From: a phage
DNA length: 64,000 nt
Strand: one strand, 5' to 3'
Assembly (NCBI GenBank): GCA_024686575.1
Contig: GCA_024686575.1_4863.1
Below are positions 3,596-64,000 of the stretch, one piece after another. Numbering within the stretch: position 1 is the stretch's first letter; the number at the start of each line of letters is the position of its first letter. A program made the translations under genes and the position numbers. The notes under the pieces are model-generated. The model was given only the letters and a program-made list of their open reading frames with translations. It had not been told where the DNA came from and did not search any database.

Positions 3596-4482
3596 CAGTT
3601 AGCTGTCCCTAAGAACCACGGTGCTGGCTGGCCGATACGGATGGTCAGTGACAGACGATCGTTGGTCTGTGCCAGGTTAGTGAACAGAGAGATGTAGTAC
3701 AACGCTTGCACACCGATAGCTTCGTCGTAGCTGAACTGTGAACCGGTAGCCGACTCACCCGTTTCAGGGGTATCAACGCCAGAGCACAGCGCAATTTCAG
3801 AGATAATCGAACTGCGCGGCGTGCCACGTAGAATCGCCGTCACGTTCATGTATTCCTGAACATCAAACTCAGTCCATGGAATCACCAGGTCTGCGCCCGA
3901 TTCAACATAACGACCGTCGGGGATCTCTACAGTGCCGTCATCGTCGTAATCGTAGTCTGGGAGTTCTTTCGGTACCGGGTTCAGTTCCGCATCGGTATAG
4001 ACGAAATCTTTGACGGTTTCAACACCGTTTTCGCGAGTGATATCCAGGTCAGTGGTCTTCACTGCGCGCATATCGATACGTTTCAGATAGTACGCCCAGT
4101 AATCCCGCGCGCCGATAGTTTCACGAGTACGGAAAGCGTACTGTTTACGTTGCTCATCAGATAAGTCATTATCCAATGTACGCAGTACCAATGGAACGCG
4201 CGAGAACATCCCTGACGTAATCGGGGATTTCGCGACAGGAACAACGTCTGCCACAACATCAGACTGATCAACAATGTGTCCGCGATTGCCTACGCACATG
4301 TATCCTAAATGCGGGCGTGTAGCGCCATCGGGCACTTTCGAGGTCATGAGTTTATAAAACTCGTTCATCGTGGATTTCTGTGGGTACTGCACGTCAGCGC
4401 CTGTCAATAACGCGGTCGTAAGTCGCATCGCGTTAAGAGTCACTGTTGACAGTTTACCATCGTAAACTTTGGTGTTAGCCAT
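3595..4482 (-). CDS. hypothetical protein
   Basis: 295 aa ORF; start overlaps stop of upstream gene; no recognisable motif. Confidence 0.65.
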   Translation of the reverse strand: MANTKVYDGKLSTVTLNAMRLTTALLTGADVQYPQKSTMNEFYKLMTSKVPDGATRPHLGYMCVGNRGHIVDQSDVVADVVPVAKSPITSGMFSRVPLVLRTLDNDLSDEQRKQYAFRTRETIGARDYWAYYLKRIDMRAVKTTDLDITRENGVETVKDFVYTDAELNPVPKELPDYDYDDDGTVEIPDGRYVESGADLVIPWTEFDVQEYMNVTAILRGTPRSSIISEIALCSGVDTPETGESATGSQFSYDEAIGVQALYYISLFTNLAQTNDRLSLTIRIGQPAPWFLGTAN

Positions 4483-15220: not shown

Positions 15221-15235
15221 AGATAATATCTATCT
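15221..15235 (-). promoter_or_regulatory. conserved motif 2 (plus AGATAATATCTATCT; inverted repeat AGATA-N5-TATCT)
   Basis: Exact 15-mer present four times in the window; here about 45 nt upstream of the ATG at 15181. Confidence 0.5.
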
Positions 15236-15286
15236 CAGATTACTTTGGGCACGGGTTCATACCCAGTGCCCGTAACGTAAAAAACT

Positions 15287-15985
15287 TTAGGGTATTAGGC
15301 GTTGGGCTATTTCGCGGAGTTGGTCGCGGGTTAAATCAGCCAACTTCTGGTCGCCGAAGCCCAACTTCAGACCCAGCTCGTACCCAGCTTGCGGATACGT
15401 GTTCGTGTTTGCTACTGAGAGGAGTGCATCGGCTATCTTTACCATCGTTAACTCGAGAGACGCATACGGGGCGGGGATCGGCTGATTCACGATTTGGTAA
15501 TTATAACGCACTGCGGCGTTATCGTAGTCAAACTCCATCCTTCTGCCGAGAACGTTAAACGACTCCGCAGAATAACTACCAAGTGGGTGATTGGCTTTTT
15601 CCCACAAATCTTTCCGTTCAGTAAACCCAGTCGCGAAGTTCTGACGTATGGTGTCGAATATTTGCGTTGCCTGGCTAGGGTGTATATTTTTCAGCTCATT
15701 GTAGTCGTAGTCGGCGATGGAATATAGAGTGAACACAACACCGTTTATATTTAACTGCGGATAATCCATCCGCAGACTGTCATCACCTTGTAAATGAAGT
15801 TCCCACATCCTTACCCACTGCAATATCGCGCTTACCGCATCGTGACTGAGATAAAAATTAGTAGGTTCTTCAGGATTTTCACGGAAGGGAACAGAGCATT
15901 CCGATACAAAAAAGCCGGCTGCCATAAATCCTCTGCCGTCGAACATAGGCGCAACTAATCTTGATTTTTCTAAATTGATTACCAT
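15287..15985 (-). CDS. hypothetical protein
   Basis: 232 aa; AAGGAG Shine-Dalgarno 8 nt upstream of ATG; preceded by the AGATAGATATTATCT motif and the terminator of the upstream gene. Confidence 0.7.
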   Translation of the reverse strand: MVINLEKSRLVAPMFDGRGFMAAGFFVSECSVPFRENPEEPTNFYLSHDAVSAILQWVRMWELHLQGDDSLRMDYPQLNINGVVFTLYSIADYDYNELKNIHPSQATQIFDTIRQNFATGFTERKDLWEKANHPLGSYSAESFNVLGRRMEFDYDNAAVRYNYQIVNQPIPAPYASLELTMVKIADALLSVANTNTYPQAGYELGLKLGFGDQKLADLTRDQLREIAQRLIP

Positions 15986-16025
15986 TACTGTCTCCTTAAG
16001 TTAAAACCGAACGACTCTCTCCCTA

Positions 16026-16040
16026 AGATAATATCTATCT
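16026..16040 (-). promoter_or_regulatory. conserved motif 2, copy downstream of the 766 aa gene terminator
   Basis: Exact 15-mer 41 nt upstream of the ATG at 15985, immediately after the terminator U-run. Confidence 0.5.
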
Positions 16041-16089
16041 ATAAATTTTTAGAAAAAAAGAAAAAGCTTACTCCCCGAAGGGAGTAAGC
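16041..16089 (-). terminator. rho-independent terminator after the highly expressed 766 aa gene
   Basis: Stem GCTTACTCC/GGAGTAAGC followed on minus strand by TTTTTCTTTTTTTC. Confidence 0.8.
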
Positions 16090-16120
16090 TAATCTTAGGC
16101 AACGTAATCCTTACGGATTA

Positions 16121-18421
16121 TTAGCCGCCAGCGCCTTCACCGCCAGTACCTGGCTGGGTAGCACCGCCGCCAACATCACCAGCATTACCACCGTCAGTAC
16201 CGCCGGTACCGTTGGAAGTAGTAGTGACGTTGAACGCCAGTTTCTCTTCCACGAACTTGGTGATACCTTTAATCCAGATCAGACCAGTGATCGGGCAGTG
16301 GCAGATGTGCGCGTTACGAGGCTGTACTGCCAGCTCTTTGCTGGTAGCGCCGTTACGCTGGATGTTGATGTTGGTTACCATGATCGGAGACCAGAAGTGG
16401 TTACCCCAGTTCAGAACACAGTAAGAACCATCATCAGCGGTTGGAACTTTCAGAACCCACTGCAGGCGGCGAGTCCAGCTGCCGTCAGCTTCGTTCTTCA
16501 CACGCCAGCGGTCATCGTTGGTGGTGATAACTTCGTACTCGTAGCGATCGCCCAGCAGACGCTGGTCACCCTGAACCAGCAGCAGCATTGCAGCAGTCGG
16601 TTCGTCAGTTGCGATAACAACTTTCGGCAGTGCGTTCGGGTCCGCAGTCAGCAGGCGCAGAGCCGGCATGAAGCGAGAGTCCTGGATAGCACGAGTTACC
16701 TGGTCACCGATACGCTGTACCAGACCCTGACGGGCGTTGATGAGCGCATCTTTGGTATCCAGAGACTGGATCACTTTGTCCACTTCGTAGTCGCTTTCGC
16801 TGTACCACGGAGCAACCCAGTGACGGCCCAGGCCGCGGATAGCAGGTTTGTCCCACGGAGTGATCATGGACGCAGCTGCGTTCTTAACCGCTTCGGTGTA
16901 AGACAGAGTCTGAGTGATAGCCAGCATTTCGTTACGGATGTTAACCGCAGAAACGAGGTCGTCCAGACGTTCGGTGTCGTCGTATTCAACGCCAACCGGA
17001 GATTTGGTCATGATCGGAGAACCGTACTGCAGTTTGTAGTTCTCTTGTTCCCAAATCGGGTCGAGCAGAAGGCCCTGGGTTCTCCGGTTCTCGTTGGTAC
17101 GAGTACCGTCGAAGCGCCAGCCCAGCAGCTCCAGTTTCAGGTTGTCGATGATGACTTTGCCGGTGCCGCTTTCGATATCAACAGCAGTACCAGTTGCGTC
17201 GTACAGACCTTCGATTTCCAGAGACGGTGCAGTCACGTCAACACGACCAGAGAACTGACCATTGGTGAACAGAGACATGCTGATGTTCATGGAATAACGA
17301 ATGGTGTAATCGTTCTGTGCCAGAGCGGCCAGTGCCGGGATTTCAGCACCTTTCCAGTCCAGAGACTTGGCGTTCAGGGAGAACACAGTGCGACGGAACT
17401 GCAGGACCAGCTCACGGCCATCACCTTCAGGAGGACGCTGGAAGGTAGCGAACTGCATGTCGCGTACGTTCAGTTTGATCAGCGCACCATCTTTCGCTTC
17501 TTCGGCCGGCTTACGCACAGACAGCAGCAGGCTACCCAGCGCTGCACCCGGTGCGATTTCGTCGGTTTCATCGTAACCTTCCTGCACGATACCCGGATGG
17601 GCAGACAGCTGGAACAGGTTCAGACGACGCTCAGAGAAGCTCAGGTAGTTGGTCGGATACGCCGGCACACGACCCAGCTGAACGTTTTCGTTTTCGATGA
17701 TGTCTTCGGATACGAAGAACTTCGCGTTCTCACCGGTTTCCATCACGTAAGGTACGATACGGATAGCATCGTCCTGCAGGACTTTGTGGTTAGACAGCGC
17801 GTTATGCAGCGGCTGACGGTTGTCTTCAACCACGTCTTTGGTCAGCAGGGCGTTCAGGATACCACGAGTTACAGTAGTAACTTTGGTACGAACGGTGATC
17901 CCGACGTCGTTGGTGTCCACAGTGATGGTCGGGAACAGGGTTTCTGCAAACTTGGATTGAGTTTCCAGAGCACGCACGTTCAGCGTCCAGGTCAGACCCA
18001 GGTTTTTGTCCAGGTCTTTGTTGGTGTAGTATTCGGTTGCGACCAGCGGAGTTTTACCGTAGTCAGCAGCCAGGGATGCTGCACCAGAAATAGCGATCGG
18101 CATATAGCTGGCGTATTCCGGCTTCGCGCTCTCAGCAGCAACACGGGTCATGAAGTCATCTTCGTGACCGGCAGCAGCCAGAATCATCGCAGAAGCAACC
18201 TGAGCAGCGTGGCTCATGGTTTTGCCAGGGTTTACAGCTTCGTAGTGCTGCTGAGCAGTGTCACGCAGGTTGGTGAAGCCGGCAGCATTTTTACGTACAG
18301 ATTCGCCAACGGCTACGGTTTGCCATACGTCATTAGCGGAAGAGCCTGCCTTGGCAGCAGCGACCAGAGCATTGCCCTGCTGAACCAGCTGGTCCAGACT
18401 AGCGATACGGGTATCTTTCAT
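16121..18421 (-). CDS. highly expressed structural protein, candidate major capsid protein
   Basis: 766 aa; strong preference for GGT/CTG/CGT/AAC/ACC codons unlike most neighbours; strong terminator directly downstream; Gly-rich C-terminal tail. Capsid role is a guess from size and expression. Confidence 0.75.
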   Translation of the reverse strand: MKDTRIASLDQLVQQGNALVAAAKAGSSANDVWQTVAVGESVRKNAAGFTNLRDTAQQHYEAVNPGKTMSHAAQVASAMILAAAGHEDDFMTRVAAESAKPEYASYMPIAISGAASLAADYGKTPLVATEYYTNKDLDKNLGLTWTLNVRALETQSKFAETLFPTITVDTNDVGITVRTKVTTVTRGILNALLTKDVVEDNRQPLHNALSNHKVLQDDAIRIVPYVMETGENAKFFVSEDIIENENVQLGRVPAYPTNYLSFSERRLNLFQLSAHPGIVQEGYDETDEIAPGAALGSLLLSVRKPAEEAKDGALIKLNVRDMQFATFQRPPEGDGRELVLQFRRTVFSLNAKSLDWKGAEIPALAALAQNDYTIRYSMNISMSLFTNGQFSGRVDVTAPSLEIEGLYDATGTAVDIESGTGKVIIDNLKLELLGWRFDGTRTNENRRTQGLLLDPIWEQENYKLQYGSPIMTKSPVGVEYDDTERLDDLVSAVNIRNEMLAITQTLSYTEAVKNAAASMITPWDKPAIRGLGRHWVAPWYSESDYEVDKVIQSLDTKDALINARQGLVQRIGDQVTRAIQDSRFMPALRLLTADPNALPKVVIATDEPTAAMLLLVQGDQRLLGDRYEYEVITTNDDRWRVKNEADGSWTRRLQWVLKVPTADDGSYCVLNWGNHFWSPIMVTNINIQRNGATSKELAVQPRNAHICHCPITGLIWIKGITKFVEEKLAFNVTTTSNGTGGTDGGNAGDVGGGATQPGTGGEGAGG

Positions 18422-22842: not shown

Positions 22843-22868
22843 TCACCTAGGTAATATATATCTGAAAT
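22843..22868 (-). promoter_or_regulatory. conserved promoter-like motif 1 (minus-strand reading contains TATATATTACCTAGGTGA)
   Basis: 26-nt exact repeat TCACCTAGGTAATATATATCTGAAAT shared with 31344-31369; lies between a terminator and the first gene of a small-gene operon. Confidence 0.55.
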
Positions 22869-30540: not shown

Positions 30541-31302
30541 TTACGCTGCTGGTTCTTCAGCGGTTTTCACTTCAACTGGTTTCATCAGCGAGTTCGCACA
30601 GTCGAAGATAGCATCCAGGAAACCACGGAACGGCTTCATGGCTTCACGCTGGGCGTTCTGACGTTCTTCTTCAATTGCTTCTTCTTGCGCCTGAATTTCT
30701 TCAGCAGTCAGCTCCGGGTGTTCCGTCATGCTTTCTGCCAGGGTCATCACTTTCGGCTGCGCATTCCGAATCGGAATACGGCGGATGACCTTGGTGATAT
30801 TCCCGAGCTTCATGCCACCCAGCGCGGTTTCGAACAGCGTACCGAAATCTTGCAGTGGGTCTTCGCTGATTTCCAGTACCGCCGGAGTCGCAACCAGACC
30901 AAAGGCAATGACCAATTCAACAGCAGTGTCGGTGACGTGCACAGCGAACGGGGTGTCTTCCATCTGCAGGTAATTGTTACCATTATAGGTCACCGGAATG
31001 AATTTGATTTCTTCCCCTTTCTTCAGGCGCAGTGTGTCGACTGCGGCTTTGTACTGAACTTCGTACAGTTCCGGTTTAACACCGTCAACGTTATCCAGTG
31101 TAAAGAGCAGGTCGCCAACCGCCATACGGCGCGGCAGTTTGCGTTTGTTGATTTCGCGCAGCCAGACTTGTAAGCCGGTGAATTGAATTGGGGACAGTAT
31201 AATTTTAAAGCCGTTGGTTGCTTGCAGGATAGCACCGTCGTCTTCGCTACGTTCGATAGAGCCATTAGCCAGAGTAAGCAGATTGATAGTTTTCATTTTC
31301 AT
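30541..31302 (-). CDS. hypothetical protein
   Basis: 253 aa ORF; AAGGAA Shine-Dalgarno; conserved promoter-like motif about 50 nt upstream of ATG. Confidence 0.7.
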   Translation of the reverse strand: MKMKTINLLTLANGSIERSEDDGAILQATNGFKIILSPIQFTGLQVWLREINKRKLPRRMAVGDLLFTLDNVDGVKPELYEVQYKAAVDTLRLKKGEEIKFIPVTYNGNNYLQMEDTPFAVHVTDTAVELVIAFGLVATPAVLEISEDPLQDFGTLFETALGGMKLGNITKVIRRIPIRNAQPKVMTLAESMTEHPELTAEEIQAQEEAIEEERQNAQREAMKPFRGFLDAIFDCANSLMKPVEVKTAEEPAA

Positions 31303-31343
31303 ATTCCTTAAGTGATAGTCGGTTAAAAGATTACCAATGCAAT

Positions 31344-31369
31344 CTCACCTAGGTAATATATATCTGAAA
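31344..31369 (-). promoter_or_regulatory. conserved promoter-like motif 1, second copy
   Basis: Identical 26-mer, with partial conservation of the next 15 nt; located after the paralog-1 terminator and about 50 nt upstream of the ATG at 31302. Confidence 0.55.
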
Positions 31370-31385
31370 TCTTTTCTAATCTGAG

Positions 31386-31426
31386 ACAAAAAAAGAAAGG
31401 GTAAATCCCCCACCGAAGTGGGGGAT
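31386..31426 (-). terminator. rho-independent terminator after paralog 1
   Basis: Stem ATCCCCCAC/GTGGGGGAT, UUCG loop in RNA, followed on minus strand by CTTTCTTTTTTT. Confidence 0.8.
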
Positions 31427-31438
31427 TCGCCAGTCTAA

Positions 31439-32698
31439 TTACTTAGACTTTTCGTACGCACCGATACCGGCGCTGATGTAGCCGTTAACGCCGGCGATCA
31501 GGTTTTTCTGGCCAGTTGCAACGCAACGTTCGGTCCAGGAGATGTACTGGTTCGCAACGGTGATTGCACGACGTGCAACACGGACGTTGGAAGTCAGTTC
31601 AGCGTTGTCGTCGATCTTCACGCCGTCGATACGTTTCAGCAGCGCCTCAATAGCCCGCTCGTACGATTCTTGAGCCTGGTTATTTTTGTGGTACGCTTTC
31701 ACGTTCTCTTCGACTGCTTTACCCAGCTGGTTGAAGAACGCAACCAGAGAAGACAGCGTCTGAGCAGACGGAGTAGAAACAGATTTTTCTACGCTGCCTT
31801 CAGCATCGATAACGGTGAAGGAAGCTTCCAGGTCATCCCCGTTCACTTTCACGTCAGCTTTACCGATCTGGTTACCCAGCAGTTGAACTTCGCCCGCTTT
31901 GCCTGCAGTGGCTTTGTTAACCGCTGCTGCGAAGCCGCTGTTCAGTTTCCCGCCTTCAACTGCGCTGACCATGCTGGTTGCAGCTTTGACCACTGCATCC
32001 TGCTCGCCGTAGATGCTGCCGATAGTAGACAGAACACCTTTCAGGACGTTGATGTCGTTACCGACGAACTTACCACCGGTGGTCAGGTTCTTAATGAACC
32101 CACCGCTAACGGTGTCTTTCTTCTGCTTGCCCAGACCACGCAGAGCCGCGTCATATTTCTTAGCGCGCGCCTGAATGGATTTACCCTGGTTGCTGAACTT
32201 GAGCCAGCGATCTTTGATTTTACGGCCTTGTTCTTTCAGCCAGTCGAAGATACGCTGCAGGAACGCTTTGATGTCGTCCCACAGTGATTCACGAGCAACC
32301 TGACGGCGTTTACGTGCGCCGTAAGATTCCTGCGCAACGCTTACGCGGTGATCGAATGCCCAACGTTTACGGATAGATTCCTGCGCAACGTCCAGCTGCT
32401 CAGCAGCTTCGTCAGGCATATCTTCTTCCACTTCCATTGGCTCTTCGCCATCTTCGCCTTCGCCGTCAGCAGCGGCTTCAGCAGCATCAACTGCATCCAG
32501 CTGTGCATCAGTTTCGTCACCGTCTTCTGCCAGCACGTCTGCTTCTGCGTCCAGCTGGTCGATCGGTTTGGTGTCGTGCTCGATGTCAGCCAGAGTACCT
32601 TCCACGGACTCAGCCGGCAGCTCGATGCCATCTGGAACGACAGTGCCTGCGCCTTCGACAGATTCACGAGCGAGTTTACTTTTTACAAAGTTAGCCAT
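31439..32698 (-). CDS. abundant protein, paralog 1 of tandem pair (candidate head or scaffold-like structural protein)
   Basis: 419 aa; strongly biased codon usage; N-terminus MANFVKSKLARESVE and C-terminus GAGIGAYEKSK shared with the adjacent gene; acidic N-terminal region; terminator downstream. Confidence 0.8.
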   Translation of the reverse strand: MANFVKSKLARESVEGAGTVVPDGIELPAESVEGTLADIEHDTKPIDQLDAEADVLAEDGDETDAQLDAVDAAEAAADGEGEDGEEPMEVEEDMPDEAAEQLDVAQESIRKRWAFDHRVSVAQESYGARKRRQVARESLWDDIKAFLQRIFDWLKEQGRKIKDRWLKFSNQGKSIQARAKKYDAALRGLGKQKKDTVSGGFIKNLTTGGKFVGNDINVLKGVLSTIGSIYGEQDAVVKAATSMVSAVEGGKLNSGFAAAVNKATAGKAGEVQLLGNQIGKADVKVNGDDLEASFTVIDAEGSVEKSVSTPSAQTLSSLVAFFNQLGKAVEENVKAYHKNNQAQESYERAIEALLKRIDGVKIDDNAELTSNVRVARRAITVANQYISWTERCVATGQKNLIAGVNGYISAGIGAYEKSK

Positions 32699-32714
32699 CT
32701 TTTTCTATCCTCTA

Positions 32715-32735
32715 GGCGGTACGCCGTGTACCGCC
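32715..32735 (-). other. intergenic hairpin between the tandem paralogs
   Basis: 8-bp stem GGCGGTAC/GTACCGCC with 5-nt loop and no U-run, between the stop of paralog 2 and the Shine-Dalgarno of paralog 1. Confidence 0.45.
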
Positions 32736-32775
32736 ATTAATGATTTGTCAACTGACGTTCAGTACGTAAAGCGGA

Positions 32776-34053
32776 TTATGCTTTAGACTTTTCGTACGCG
32801 CCAATACCAGCGCCGATGTAGCCGTTCAGGCCGCTGATAACAGTGTTACCAACGTGAGCCACAGCACGGTTCAGAGTCTGGTAGTTACGCACAGCCTGGT
32901 CAGCTGCAGTGCGTGCATTACGCAGCGCTTCCCACTCGCCTTCGTCGTTGGATTTTTTCAGAGCGGCAGCAGCTTTGGCAGCAGCCTCTTCCAGTTTCTC
33001 AACGTCAGCGTCGTAGCTGCGGAAGTCTTGCAGGACTTTCTCGAAGCCTTTACCGATAACGTCCAGGGCAGACGCAGCAGATGCCAGTGCAGAAATAGCC
33101 GGAGTAGCGATTTCTTTCGTTTCAGAAACGTCACCCGTCGACAGGAAGGCCACTGCGGTGAATTCCTGACCGCCTGCCAGAGTTTTGGTGCCGGTCTGTA
33201 CATAGGCGTTGCCTGGCAGTGCCAGAACTTTCTGACCGCCTTCGCCGTCTTCGAATTGCGGCAGTGCGCGCAGTTTCTTCGCAGCGGTACCAAACAGGGC
33301 AACGTCAACAGCGCCTTTAGCAGCGGTTGCGGTACCGTCTGAAGTTTTGGTGATCGCTACAGCAGAGTCAGCCGCCTGAGAGGACAGCTTGTTGATAGCA
33401 TCTTTCGCTTTACCGCCGGTCAGCTCTTTCGCGATAGCGATAGAGTTGGCCACATCGAATTCACCTTCGATAGACAGTTTGCTAATAAAGCCACCAGAAA
33501 TGTTTTCTTTCTTCTGTTTGCCGAGCTTACGCAGCATCTCCTGGTAAGCTTTCGCACGTTTCTGCGCGGACTTACCAACGTTGATGTACTTCAGTTTCAG
33601 CTCTTTCGCTTTCGCGATAACTGCTTTACACAGTTCAACGAAGCGTTCGAACAGATCTTTCAGGGTTTCTTTCCAGCCTTCCTGAGCTGCTTTGGTCATG
33701 CCACGGCCACGGCGATAAGATTCGCGTGCCAGTTTGGTACGATCGATAGCCCAACGCTTACGGATAGATTCCTGCGCCACCTCGGTGTGAGCGATGGCTT
33801 CTTCAGGCATCTCTTCACCGTTTTCGATTTTTTCGTCAGCAGCGTCGATAGCAGCTTCGGTACGCTCGGTATCAGCAGCCAGAGTTTCCTGGTCACCATC
33901 GAGCTGTTCCAGCTGACCGTCGATAGACGCAACTTCTGCCAGCTGAACGTCGATGTTCTCTTCTGCCGGTTCAACGTTGCTCAGACCGTCGATTACGTCG
34001 CCGGTAGCTTCAACGGACTCGCGGGCGAGTTTACTTTTTACAAAGTTTGCCAT
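32776..34053 (-). CDS. abundant protein, paralog 2 of tandem pair (candidate head or scaffold-like structural protein)
   Basis: 425 aa; same N-terminal 15 residues and C-terminal motif as paralog 1; biased codon usage; AAAGGAA Shine-Dalgarno. Confidence 0.8.
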   Translation of the reverse strand: MANFVKSKLARESVEATGDVIDGLSNVEPAEENIDVQLAEVASIDGQLEQLDGDQETLAADTERTEAAIDAADEKIENGEEMPEEAIAHTEVAQESIRKRWAIDRTKLARESYRRGRGMTKAAQEGWKETLKDLFERFVELCKAVIAKAKELKLKYINVGKSAQKRAKAYQEMLRKLGKQKKENISGGFISKLSIEGEFDVANSIAIAKELTGGKAKDAINKLSSQAADSAVAITKTSDGTATAAKGAVDVALFGTAAKKLRALPQFEDGEGGQKVLALPGNAYVQTGTKTLAGGQEFTAVAFLSTGDVSETKEIATPAISALASAASALDVIGKGFEKVLQDFRSYDADVEKLEEAAAKAAAALKKSNDEGEWEALRNARTAADQAVRNYQTLNRAVAHVGNTVISGLNGYIGAGIGAYEKSKA

Positions 34054-34109
34054 TTGTTTCGGTTCCTTTGGTTATAACCCAATTACACGCCCCTAGATAA
34101 GGGGCCCCC

Positions 34110-34667
34110 TTAGGGACGTGCGATTTTTAAAAACACTGCTAACGACGAGATCATATCGGATAACCCGTTCGGACGTGTCAACCAACGTGCCAGCAGTTCG
34201 TGGTCTGCATAAGATAATAGACGCCGGTCAGGCGTGTACGTCTGATGCGCAGTTCCCATTTGGCGAACTTGCCCACTACGGCCGTAAGCCGCAGCAAGAA
34301 GTCGTGAGCCCAGGGAACCGGTTCGCTCTACTTGCTTGGTAGAGTGGATATCGTTCATGTACGATACCAGAAGAACGGACCACTGTCCTGTTGACACTGT
34401 ACGGCGTTTACCGTCAAGTATGAACGATGCAGTTTCGTTATAGAACGTATTAAACGTAAAACCGACCTGCGGATATTCGTCATATAATACTTGTTGGACA
34501 GAGTCAGCGCCCATCATGCGGAAATACGGCAGCACGACGGCTGCAGCTTCCAGGGTTTCATGTATCAGTTCGTCGTCATGAACCAGCACGGGGTTTTGGG
34601 TCAGTTTCGCCATGTAGTTTTTAATCAACTTCTCGGCGAGGTTAAAATTCTGGTCATTGTCAAACAT
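34110..34667 (-). CDS. hypothetical protein
   Basis: 185 aa ORF upstream of the paralog pair; structured GC-rich hairpin just downstream of stop. Confidence 0.65.
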   Translation of the reverse strand: MFDNDQNFNLAEKLIKNYMAKLTQNPVLVHDDELIHETLEAAAVVLPYFRMMGADSVQQVLYDEYPQVGFTFNTFYNETASFILDGKRRTVSTGQWSVLLVSYMNDIHSTKQVERTGSLGSRLLAAAYGRSGQVRQMGTAHQTYTPDRRLLSYADHELLARWLTRPNGLSDMISSLAVFLKIARP

Positions 34668-34690
34668 GAGACTCTCCTGATAATACGGCC

Positions 34691-35668
34691 TTAAACCAGA
34701 CCGTATTTTTTCTCCAGACGTTCACGTTTGTACTTGAGTTCCATCAAGCGCTTTTCGTGCGCTTCGATGAGTTTCTCAATGTGCACGTCCCCTTCACCGG
34801 CAGCCAGTTGTTTCTTGTACAACAGAATACGCAGTTCAGTCGCTTTCGCGGCTTCCACGCACTCGTCATAACGATCCATTTGCCATTCTGCAATATTCAG
34901 ACGCACGCGGTAGACGATCGACAGCGGGAACGGGACGGAGGACATGCCCAGCGGGTCAGTGGTGTTCGAACCGAACTGCTGAACCAATTGGCTATATGTC
35001 TCTTCGTCAAACACCGCTTCGGGTATCTCAGCGTAGTCTGCTTTCAGTTTGGTAATGGGGGTTGCCAGGACGCGCACCGCAATACAGAAAGACGTCTTAC
35101 GAGTTTGCAGATACTGAAGGTCTTTCGGACCGATTCCCTTCACTGCAATGTTCGAGTCTTGTACAGCGGCAATCTCTTCGGCCGTGATGTAGTTAATCAG
35201 GGTGCTAGCGTAACCGACGAAGAATTCGATCATATCCAGCAACTGCAACACGGTTTGTTTGTTGAACGTTAGAGATGATGTCACCAACGTCTTCCCGATG
35301 TCACGGTCGATACACTGCTCCAGGAAAGGTCGCAGCGCCTGTACGTTCTGCATAGACGCGATGACGTACTCCAGCATACTTGCGTTACGTAACCCTTTAA
35401 CTTCCAAACCGGAGCTATGCAGGTACTTAACGATTTCAGTAGAAAGGTCTGCAACAGGCTTCGCTTTAAATGGCTTACCCTGGATACTTCCTACCAGTTC
35501 CTGGAGGTTCTGGAACTGTGGCTCTAACGCAGCAATCGAGTCGCAGTTAGATGACAGTTGATTTTTTAAGTTGGTGGCTTCGAAGCTCGGCAGCAACATC
35601 GCCAACATATTCGGAATCGGCATTCTTTTCCCCTTACAGTACCGGATTCGCGCCAGCGCGATAGGCAT
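34691..35668 (-). CDS. hypothetical protein
   Basis: 325 aa ORF; C-terminal coiled-coil-like region. Confidence 0.7.
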   Translation of the reverse strand: MPIALARIRYCKGKRMPIPNMLAMLLPSFEATNLKNQLSSNCDSIAALEPQFQNLQELVGSIQGKPFKAKPVADLSTEIVKYLHSSGLEVKGLRNASMLEYVIASMQNVQALRPFLEQCIDRDIGKTLVTSSLTFNKQTVLQLLDMIEFFVGYASTLINYITAEEIAAVQDSNIAVKGIGPKDLQYLQTRKTSFCIAVRVLATPITKLKADYAEIPEAVFDEETYSQLVQQFGSNTTDPLGMSSVPFPLSIVYRVRLNIAEWQMDRYDECVEAAKATELRILLYKKQLAAGEGDVHIEKLIEAHEKRLMELKYKRERLEKKYGLV

Positions 35669-59713: not shown

Positions 59714-59728
59714 AGATAATATCTATCT
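59714..59728. promoter_or_regulatory. conserved motif 2 in divergent intergenic region
   Basis: Exact 15-mer between the RNAP beta-like gene start (59683) and the plus gene start (59750); could serve either or both. Confidence 0.5.
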
Positions 59729-63203: not shown

Positions 63204-64000
63204 TTAAGAATTAAACCATTCAACTTCTTCTAACTTGCGACGTGCATTCAACACCATAAACTCCGCCAGGCTATTGTGCAGTGACAAGTGAGGTATATAG
63301 TTTGGCTGATCCGTCTCACACTTCAGCAGCGCAGCTGCTTCTGGTGTAGCCCTGAGATGGAACAGATACGGGTTGATGTGATCCTTGTGTAACAAGGTCA
63401 GTGATTCCCGTGGTGTAGATTGCGGTTCGAGATTACGCGGGTTGCGATACTCCTGAAGATAATATCTATCTAAATCTGCTTTGAGTTCAGATCGAATTGG
63501 GTCGGCTGCATAACCGGCAGACATCTCAGAACGCACCATATTGCAACTTAACAGTTGCGCAACGTCATACATTCCATAATTGAGATAAGTTGCCTGTGCT
63601 AACGCCATGCCGTAGCGAAACGCTTCTGGTCCACATTCGGTATACGTCTTATAATGCGCGCTACGATGGAGTGCTAATGCGACTAACCATTCGTGGAGCG
63701 TATAGACAGGACCGTCGTGTGTTGCCAGTTGCGAATCAATCAATAACTTAACATCTGCTGGAGCGGCATTATCCAGGCGCATTGTTTTCAAGAAAGAGCG
63801 GTATTCTTTAAATACGTACTCGGTACGGACGTATTCTTTCATCTGGGCAGGAGAACGTGCCTGCACCAAATCCATGGCGTTTATCTTACCCTTTTCGCCA
63901 TTGAATATCACACTTTCTGGATGCGCTTTTAACAGCACCGGCTGGTTAGAGATTTTGTTTGCAAAACCTGTTTCAATCTCTTGTTTAACCAGAAAATACA
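63204..64000 (-). CDS. hypothetical protein, 5-prime partial (continues beyond window end)
   Basis: Track ORF starts at a GTG at 63938, but the frame stays open to the window end; contains an internal copy of the AGATAGATATTATCT motif. Confidence 0.55.
   Translation of the reverse strand, partial: YFLVKQEIETGFANKISNQPVLLKAHPESVIFNGEKGKINAMDLVQARSPAQMKEYVRTEYVFKEYRSFLKTMRLDNAAPADVKLLIDSQLATHDGPVYTLHEWLVALALHRSAHYKTYTECGPEAFRYGMALAQATYLNYGMYDVAQLLSCNMVRSEMSAGYAADPIRSELKADLDRYYLQEYRNPRNLEPQSTPRESLTLLHKDHINPYLFHLRATPEAAALLKCETDQPNYIPHLSLHNSLAEFMVLNARRKLEEVEWFNS
63457..63471 (-). promoter_or_regulatory. conserved motif 2, intragenic copy
   Basis: Exact 15-mer inside the coding sequence of 63204-64000 (encodes DRYYL), about 270 nt upstream of the next gene start at 63191. 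Confidence 0.35.

Follow-up and report, generated by a model that had tools for sequence, protein, structure and literature searches.

Tandem internal head protein genes gp53 and gp54 of an SPN3US-type phage: a common N-terminal tag, co-varying termini and conserved hairpins

How internal proteins are addressed to the prohead of a giant phage is a wider question, and two adjacent genes in the stretch of phage DNA analysed here (64,000 nucleotides; hereafter the window) bear on it: their products begin with the same short peptide and diverge thereafter. Why should such a start be kept in common? Two tandem open reading frames of 425 and 419 aa are found on the minus strand, exactly where a preliminary description of this DNA had placed them. 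The window is 99.2-99.6% identical in DNA to the Salmonella phages SPN3US and SEGD1, and the locus tags SPN3US_0053 and SPN3US_0054 were confirmed for the two frames. Their products are gp53 (32776..34053, minus strand, 425 aa), which differs from its SPN3US counterpart by one residue and is slightly nearer to that of SEGD1 (100% vs 99.8%), and its paralog gp54 (31439..32698, minus strand, 419 aa), which differs by two. Both match the Pfam family PF12699 of phiKZ-like internal head proteins over profile positions 2-387 of 387, with scores above the curated gathering score of 27 bits (gp53, 253.7 bits, E 4.5e-75; gp54, 193.2 bits, E 1.1e-56), and PHROG phrog_2497, annotated as 'internal head protein', is matched at E 5e-140 and 6e-150. 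The gene of a phiKZ gp91-like vertex protein neighbours the pair. A profile search of the PDB with a 19-sequence alignment returned no relative, the best match (E 0.09) being unrelated. Taken as a whole, the pair very probably encodes gp53 and gp54, the paralogous internal head (ejection) proteins of the SPN3US type, both high-abundance precursors.

Both proteins start with MANFVKSKLARESVE, identical at 15 of 15 residues as had been noticed before. At the other end a common GAGIGAYEKSK had been proposed, of which only AGIGAYEKSK is shared: gp53 ends in GAGIGAYEKSKA and gp54 in SAGIGAYEKSK, and gp53 carries one additional terminal Ala. Between the termini the sequences have diverged, but their homology is clear: BLASTP aligns the two proteins at 34% identity over their full length (E 1e-50), so that the likeness is not confined to the shared termini. 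The N-terminal peptide was also searched for elsewhere. Within the window it scores 70 at two places only, and the next best site, at 29, is at the level of shuffled sequence; therefore, the identical starts are not a matter of chance. Using tblastn at E<=10, two places only were found in the whole SPN3US genome, and the tag is thus confined to gp53 and gp54 in both searches. The identity of the genes, the shared start and the cleavage site within it are real but already published: the identical 15 residues, AXE-12 and SXE-15 were described by Ali et al. (2017; PMC5694885), and cleavage has since been confirmed by mass spectrometry, so the paired starts are not new.

In SPN3US, gp53 and gp54 are each present in >600 copies inside the head, which places them among the most abundant virion proteins, and they are near-equal in amount, with SC/M values of 21.0 and 20.2 (Ali et al., 2017; PMC5694885). 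They are found in tailless heads, and the inner shell of mottled capsids consists mainly of them (Heymann et al., 2020; PMC7552025). Together they account for most of the protein (>40 MDa) that this giant phage packages along with its DNA. High expression, earlier suggested by biased codon usage, is borne out by these published copy numbers. The bias itself is strong, gp53 and gp54 ranking second and third behind the major capsid protein among 45 genes of >=150 aa in the span (Fop 0.80 and 0.78; Nc 34.7 and 37.1, respectively), and is consistent with the high copy number inside the capsid. In SPN3US both proteins are made late, in very large amounts, and are built into the prohead, where most of the T=1 inner shell consists of them.

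The N-terminal regions, rightly called acidic before, correspond to propeptides. That of gp53 (residues 1-125; 33679..34053, minus strand) has a net charge of -15 and AXE sites at 12, 32, 74, 95, 111 and 125, and that of gp54 (residues 1-137; 32288..32698, minus strand) a net charge of -26 and AXE sites at 12, 74, 100, 107, 124 and 137. The mature parts are basic (+7 and +10). In SPN3US, cuts after A-X-E are made by the prohead protease gp245, and mass spectrometry located such cuts at ARE-12, AQE-95 and AQE-125 in gp53 and at AQE-124 and ARE-137 in gp54, giving full propeptides of 125 and 137 residues (2023, PMC10052503 Table 2). The published mature N-termini, (E)GWKETLKDLFER of gp53 and (E)SLWDDIK of gp54, are found in the present sequence after AQE-125 and ARE-137, respectively. 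The S/A/G-X-E motifs that bound the propeptide in PF12699 lie at the published positions, and A10, E12, A93, E95, S96, E111 and E125 are invariant across 19 homologs. The reading of the N-terminal A-R-E as a prohead protease site agrees with the published ARE-12 cut of gp53, detected in 3/3 wild-type replicates; this cut is documented for gp53 only and was seen in virions, not in purified heads (PMC10052503). The shared N-terminus had further been taken for a propeptide, and it does belong to one, but as only the first 12-15 of 125-137 residues. Published virion proteomics shows both proteins to be packaged and processed and so does not contradict the preliminary description, all main inferences of which are supported by experiments on the same proteins. 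A-Y-E near the C-terminus, considered as a C-terminal cleavage site, was rejected, its Glu varying among relatives. In SPN3US the acidic N-terminal third is chopped by gp245 into fragments that mostly exit the head, and the basic C-terminal two-thirds of these proteins, classed by the authors as ejection proteins, remain with the DNA.

The tag, MANFVKSKLARE, is encoded by codons 1-12 of gp53 (34018..34053, minus strand), where it ends at the ARE-12 protease site, and the same peptide by codons 1-12 of gp54 (32663..32698, minus strand). In all the lineages examined, which cover at least seven genus-level groups, both paralogs retain a frame of M(A)NF-x-basic-basic-x-ARES-[IVM]-E. The propeptide next to it, by contrast, is poorly conserved. 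Identity between the A and B paralogs over residues 1-15 is 0.90 within a phage vs 0.67 between phages, a value that 0 of 20000 permutations reach, while the remainder of the protein gives 0.267 within and 0.260 between phages; within-phage co-variation is seen only in residues 1-12 and in the ~12 residues at the C-terminus. As judged from these alignments, evolution is concerted between the two paralogs of each lineage at the N-terminal tag and, to a lesser degree, at the very end of the C-terminus. One short 5' gene-conversion tract seems visible in L028, a metagenome-assembled contig, where nucleotides 1-47 of gene B equal those of gene A; in L029 and L031, which are closely related to it, gene B departs from A at 13 of these 47 positions. 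In L029-L031 the tags of the two paralogs are unlike (10/15 identical), and identity of the tag is therefore not required.

It may then be asked whether the tag directs anything. ARE-12 could be just one of several sites at which the long acidic propeptide is chopped into pieces small enough to exit from the head, the tag having no targeting role and its identity being a by-product of gene conversion. This explanation, which we consider rather unlikely, draws on the fragment-exit idea of Ali et al. (2017; PMC5694885), the several AXE sites in each propeptide, the tract in L028 and the non-identical tags of L029-L031. Conversion alone, however, does not account for conservation between lineages, the tag frame being held in both paralogs of all those groups despite the poorly conserved propeptide beside it, and the extreme C-terminal tail co-varies within phages too. 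A second alternative, that the shared 5' sequence is kept mainly as RNA, either as an unstructured A/U-rich translation start or as the site of a common translational regulator, appears very improbable. Codons 2-9 do end in A/U against the strong bias of the remaining gene (CAA 32/36 and TTT 29/34, vs CAG 503/590 and TTC 353/382 elsewhere), and gp53 and gp54 share the DNA of codons 3-9 exactly but carry synonymous differences in every one of codons 10-14. Yet conservation within the tag is highest at ARES, whose synonymous sites are free to vary, so that it is the protein sequence that is kept; cleavage at ARE-12 is documented (PMC10052503); and A/U-rich starts are general in highly expressed genes, making a specific regulator unnecessary. 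The first ~9 codons may be constrained as RNA in addition, with A/U-ending codons favouring an efficient translation start.

A targeting role of the tag was proposed by Ali et al. (2017; PMC5694885) by analogy with the capsid-targeting sequence (CTS) of T4, and we infer that the 12-residue tag may be a targeting signal for the prohead core. Being the first piece removed, it would act as a CTS-like docking or targeting tag for core entry, and its identity would be kept by a common partner plus occasional short gene conversion between the 5' gene ends.

Besides the common start, the two genes are separated by a stem-loop (32715..32735, minus strand), reported earlier as a hairpin without a U-run. 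It folds as such, with 8 bp, a 5-nt loop and a free energy of -15.1 kcal/mol (z -4.2), and stops 1 nt short of AGAGGA (32708-32713), the Shine-Dalgarno sequence of gp54. In 17 related sequences, folded one by one, a hairpin of 7-10 bp (-13 to -20 kcal/mol) lies 0-1 nt before AGAGGA, with at least eight different stem sequences in a pair table that was drawn up from the stem base, MAFFT having left the arms out of register, and that is fitted to the structure and so leans towards it. On this comparison, the structure is conserved despite its changing stem sequence. Covariance models of Rfam 15 gave no match at E<=1 in 31200-34300. Could the hairpin be a partial terminator, or a 3'-end signal of the phage RNA polymerase, by which transcription of gp54 is lowered relative to gp53? 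The stem is stable, GC-rich and conserved, and in the related phage 201phi2-1, 80/132 mapped transcript 3' ends are not factor-independent terminators according to ARNold. Nevertheless, this is improbable: the stem is followed by UAGAGGAUAG and not by a U-run, the hairpin is absent from the terminator scan list, its position is locked to the downstream Shine-Dalgarno sequence (0-1 nt) and not to the upstream stop codon, and the near-equal SC/M values of the two proteins speak against it as well. Instead, the gp54 portion of the mRNA is probably stabilised or insulated by this stem-loop, which sits directly against the ribosome-binding site of gp54.

Upstream of gp53, the structured GC-rich hairpin that had been described there was located at 34085..34121 (minus strand), across the stop codon of the preceding gene, gp52. 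It is near-invariant across genera, its ten outer pairs being unvaried in 11 lineages, and one compensatory pair goes along with a change of the stop codon from TAA to TGA. A palindrome (34070..34079, minus strand) lies directly 5' of the gp53 Shine-Dalgarno sequence AGGA (34064-34067) and reads GGTTATAACC, the form present here, GGTTAACC or GGTTATATAACC in all lineages and in Vibrio phage pVa-21. As candidates for a repeated promoter, the hairpin has no further copies and the palindrome no second copy in the window. A scan for sigma-70 promoters showed no enrichment (3 found vs 2.8 expected), as is to be expected since the phage uses its own RNA polymerases, and inspection by eye of the ~100 nt preceding gp53 revealed no evident phiKZ-type late-promoter TATG. 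After gp54, a canonical intrinsic terminator is found (31390..31428, minus strand), with an 11-bp stem and then a T-run (z -3.3); its hairpin (31403-31428) combines a GC-rich stem-loop with a U-run, and a hairpin plus T-run follows gp54 in every related lineage, though with differing stems. It is likely that gp53 and gp54 are co-expressed between the conserved upstream hairpin and this terminator. No transcript map of SPN3US was found in the literature, so that the limits of the operon and the part played by the hairpin are putative. That the hairpins tune the relative expression of gp53 and gp54 is plausible, since both are evolutionarily conserved.

These observations can be tentatively combined, with somewhat less than even confidence, into one proposal: the ends of gp53 and gp54 would be address labels for a single prohead partner, matched by conversion, and the stem-loop before gp54 would set a near 1:1 output. 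The labels, residues 1-12 and the last few residues, would be lineage-specific and needed on both paralogs; the tandem genes would keep them matched through recurrent conversion of short tracts; and the covarying stem-loop, placed directly against the ribosome-binding site of gp54, would be a dedicated RNA element. Neither the address-label nor the stem-loop-output idea was found in the literature searched. The additions to the SPN3US papers are the apparent concerted evolution of the termini, the conserved intergenic hairpin and the near-invariant upstream hairpin. The natural tag swap between L028 and L029, together with the co-evolving termini, supplies concrete variants for judging the role of the tag, and the structurally conserved hairpin near the gp54 ribosome-binding site is a similar source of variants for judging expression control.

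Compared with known systems, the genes are effectively those of SPN3US gp53 and gp54, the 'paralog family A' of high-abundance E proteins (PMC5694885, PMC10052503, PMC7552025). The same 15 N-terminal residues, AXE sites, neighbour genes, hairpins and terminator are found there, with no difference of substance. In T4, the internal proteins IPI, IPII, IPIII and Alt likewise share a short N-terminal peptide, the CTS, ahead of diverged bodies. The prohead protease cleaves it off behind a Glu residue, and the proteins themselves are retained in the head and injected, which is similar to the present case. Recombination at the conserved CTS-coding ends also reshuffles IP loci of the T4 type, resembling the 5' conversion seen here. 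A short shared peptide removed after Glu is thus found in both systems, here common to exactly two proteins genome-wide; the two are not homologous in sequence, no T4 internal-protein family occurring among the Pfam matches at E<=0.1. They differ further in that the SPN3US tag makes up no more than the initial 12 residues of a propeptide of 125-137, and its targeting function is putative, drawn by analogy (PMC5694885), whereas that of the CTS has been demonstrated. The phiKZ inner-body proteins gp93, gp94, gp95, gp162 and gp163 belong to the same family, PF12699, a likeness seen by profile only, as tblastn of gp53 failed to reach Pseudomonas phages. Their genes, like gp53/gp54, adjoin that of the gp91-like vertex protein. 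N-terminal propeptides are likewise removed from the phiKZ internal head proteins by a homologous prohead protease after S/A/G-X-E; for instance, gp93 is cut near its N-terminus at SLE-13 (PMC5694885). The phiKZ set comprises five paralogs, each in fewer copies, that make up a spool-like inner body, whereas the two SPN3US paralogs, at >600 copies each, form a T=1 inner shell in a precursor.

The two adjacent minus-strand genes at 32776–34053 (gp53, 425 aa) and 31439–32698 (gp54, 419 aa) encode paralogous proteins that both begin with MANFVKSKLARESVE, as the preliminary description stated. The C-terminal sequence that it gave for both, GAGIGAYEKSK, is exact for gp53 (...NGYIGAGIGAYEKSKA) and inexact for gp54 (...NGYISAGIGAYEKSK). 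The middle parts have diverged as described, and BLASTP aligns the two proteins across their entire length (34% identity, E 1e-50), a similarity reaching beyond the termini. Long direct DNA repeats between the genes number only three, located at the 5' end (53 nt, 85%), in the block encoding VAQESIRKRWA (43 nt, 88%) and at the 3' end (56 nt, 86%). The N-terminal thirds are acidic, as had been proposed (net −15 in gp53 and −26 in gp54), and the remainders are basic (net +7 and +10). The window contains no further copy of the N-terminal peptide, the next best score being at shuffle level, and the complete SPN3US genome carries it in two places only, even at E ≤ 10. The DNA is 99.2–99.6% identical over 4 kb to Salmonella phages SPN3US and SEGD1, and the window belongs to a Seoulvirus. 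The two proteins correspond to SPN3US_0053 and SPN3US_0054, with one and two residue differences, respectively; both match PHROG 2497 and, far over threshold, Pfam PF12699 (phiKZ-like phage internal head proteins).

For essentially identical proteins, it has been published that gp53 and gp54 are synthesized late and very abundantly, that they are built into the prohead and cut after A-X-E at listed sites by the prohead protease gp245, that most propeptide fragments are lost and that the basic C-terminal parts stay with the DNA. Ali et al. (PMC5694885) noted the 34% identity, compared the shared N-terminal tag with T4 capsid-targeting sequences and put the copy number per capsid at above 600 for each of the two proteins. 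Mass spectrometry in 2023 located gp245 cleavages at ARE-12, AQE-95 and AQE-125 of gp53 and at AQE-124 and ARE-137 of gp54 (PMC10052503, Table 2), and recombinant gp245 cuts gp53 in vitro (PMC10052503). In a capsid intermediate, uncleaved gp53 and gp54 account for most of a T=1 inner shell (Heymann et al., 2020, PMC7552025). The window's proteins carry every published cleavage motif at the corresponding position, and the earlier proposal that A-R-E is a prohead protease site agrees with the cleavage at ARE-12. The observation and interpretation of the pair thus hold and are not new; specialists would find nothing surprising in them.

The strong codon bias suggested for the pair was also found. 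Among the span's 45 genes encoding 150 aa or more, gp53 and gp54 rank directly behind the major capsid protein gene (Fop 0.80 and 0.78 vs 0.83, relative to a hand-compiled list of E. coli optimal codons), and their Nc values are 34.7 and 37.1. The capsid gene gp75, placed at about 15254–17554 (minus strand) by coordinate mapping from SPN3US, has the strongest bias in the span (Nc 33.2) and coincides with a GC peak at 16001–18000. Codons 2–9 across the family favour A/U endings (CAA 32/36, TTT 29/34), whereas the rest of the gp53- and gp54-type genes shows the opposite (CAG 503/590, TTC 353/382). Such A/U-ending early codons usually mark highly expressed genes whose start region is unstructured, and the 5' codons here may be tuned to translation start.

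The locus was compared in at least 20 phage genomes and viral contigs from Seoulvirus, Erskinevirus, Wellingtonvirus, Machinavirus, Derbicusvirus and unclassified metagenomic lineages. Because the paralogs form two distinct orthologous groups in every one of them, the duplication is older than the sampled genera. Both paralogs keep the tag frame M(A)NF-x-x-basic-x-x-ARES-[IVM]-E everywhere; A10, E12, A93, E95, S96, E111 and E125 are invariant. Within a phage, the paralogs agree in the variable tag residues, for example VKSKL/VKSKL in the window, AQRKI/AQRKI in pEa_SNUABM_29 and STsAS, AQRKV/AQRKV in Caitlin and AQRNL/AQRNL in one metagenomic lineage. Over residues 1–15, identity between gp53-type and gp54-type proteins is 0.90 within a phage vs 0.67 across phages, a within-phage value reached by 0/20000 permutations, or by 1/5040 with one representative per genus-level lineage; for the rest of the protein it is 0.267 vs 0.260. 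In sliding windows the effect is seen only at residues 1–12 (+0.26) and, at +0.11, over the final twelve columns, where the tails KSK, KQK, KG, KK and KA co-vary. In the metagenomic contig L028, nucleotides 1–47 of the gp54-type gene (4349–4395) are identical to the gp53-type gene, whereas the close relatives L029 (4355–4401) and L031 have 13 mismatches to the gp53-type gene over this stretch; the L028 and L029 gp54-type genes are 98% identical over the next 60 nt. This segment is a short gene-conversion (or module-swap) tract in which gp53-type replaced gp54-type sequence; L028 is a metagenome assembly, yet a misassembly would have had to switch twice where hardly any sequence is shared. Our literature search found no papers on concerted evolution of the gp53/gp54 termini. 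Such concerted evolution, together with the natural tag swap and a covarying hairpin beside the ribosome-binding site, makes a modest, testable extension of the published work.

We infer that the tag would act as a docking signal, matched in both paralogs through a common partner and gene conversion. As the main rival, it may be no more than one further cleavage site that helps to clear the propeptide, with tag identity a by-product of conversion. The paralogs' tags are non-identical in L029–L031, and identity is thus not obligatory. In the window, codons 3–9 of the two genes are identical at the DNA level and codons 10–14 all differ synonymously, meaning that ARES is kept at the protein level.

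The hairpin without a U-run reported between the genes lies at 32715–32735 (minus strand; 8 bp, −15.1 kcal/mol, z −4.2). Lacking that run, it does not qualify as an intrinsic terminator. Seventeen related sequences have a hairpin of 7–10 bp (−13 to −20 kcal/mol) that stops 0–1 nt short of the AGAGGA Shine-Dalgarno of the downstream gene, and among them the stem takes at least eight different sequences. Since structure and position are conserved and sequence is not, it is probably a functional RNA element acting on the gp54 message. A role as 5' stabiliser or insulator of that message is favoured because the hairpin is in register with the ribosome-binding site and gp53 and gp54 are near-equal in abundance (PMC5694885). 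Attenuation may occur instead, given that many mapped transcript 3' ends of the related phage 201phi2-1 are without canonical terminator features; for SPN3US itself, the literature search turned up no transcript map. Beyond gp54 lies a canonical terminator (31390–31428, minus strand). In SPN3US (L024), a 9-bp stem-loop (−13.5 kcal/mol) over the gp51 stop codon, mapped to about 34682–34707 (minus strand) of the window, stops 3 nt short of the Shine-Dalgarno AGGAG of gp52, so hairpins just 5' of ribosome-binding sites recur in the gp50–gp54 late block.

The GC-rich hairpin described upstream was located at 34085–34121 (minus strand), where it covers the stop codon of gp52. Across 11 lineages the ten outer pairs of this hairpin stay the same; the one compensatory change coincides with a switch of the stop codon from TAA to TGA. 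The hairpin is followed, just before the gp53 ribosome-binding site, by the conserved palindrome GGTTATAACC (GGTTA(TA)ACC; 34070–34079, minus strand), whose core GGTTAACC is found even in Vibrio phage pVa-21. The window holds no second copy of either element, and their DNA is almost invariant across genera with proteins only ~56% identical. This invariance, unlike the covarying gp53–gp54 hairpin, suggests a sequence-specific site, e.g., a protein-binding or promoter-like element. Separately, AGATA[GT]ATATTA[CT] occurs six times in the window, each time on the minus strand, where 0.13 occurrences would be expected: at 31353–31365, right after the gp54 terminator and conserved in other genera; at 15223–15235; and, judging from coordinates mapped to the annotation of SPN3US, apparently within gp75 (16028–16040), gp65 (22851–22863), gp32 (59716–59728) and gp30 (63459–63471). 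According to reviews, every jumbo phage has an AT-rich early (virion RNA polymerase) promoter consensus, which this motif looks like.

Just upstream of gp53, gp52 (34110–34667, minus strand) matches the phiKZ gp91 vertex-binding family (Pfam PF25618, E 1.9e-8), despite which SPN3US records annotate it as hypothetical. By adjoining gp53 and gp54, gp52 reproduces here the gp91–gp93 neighbourhood of phiKZ.
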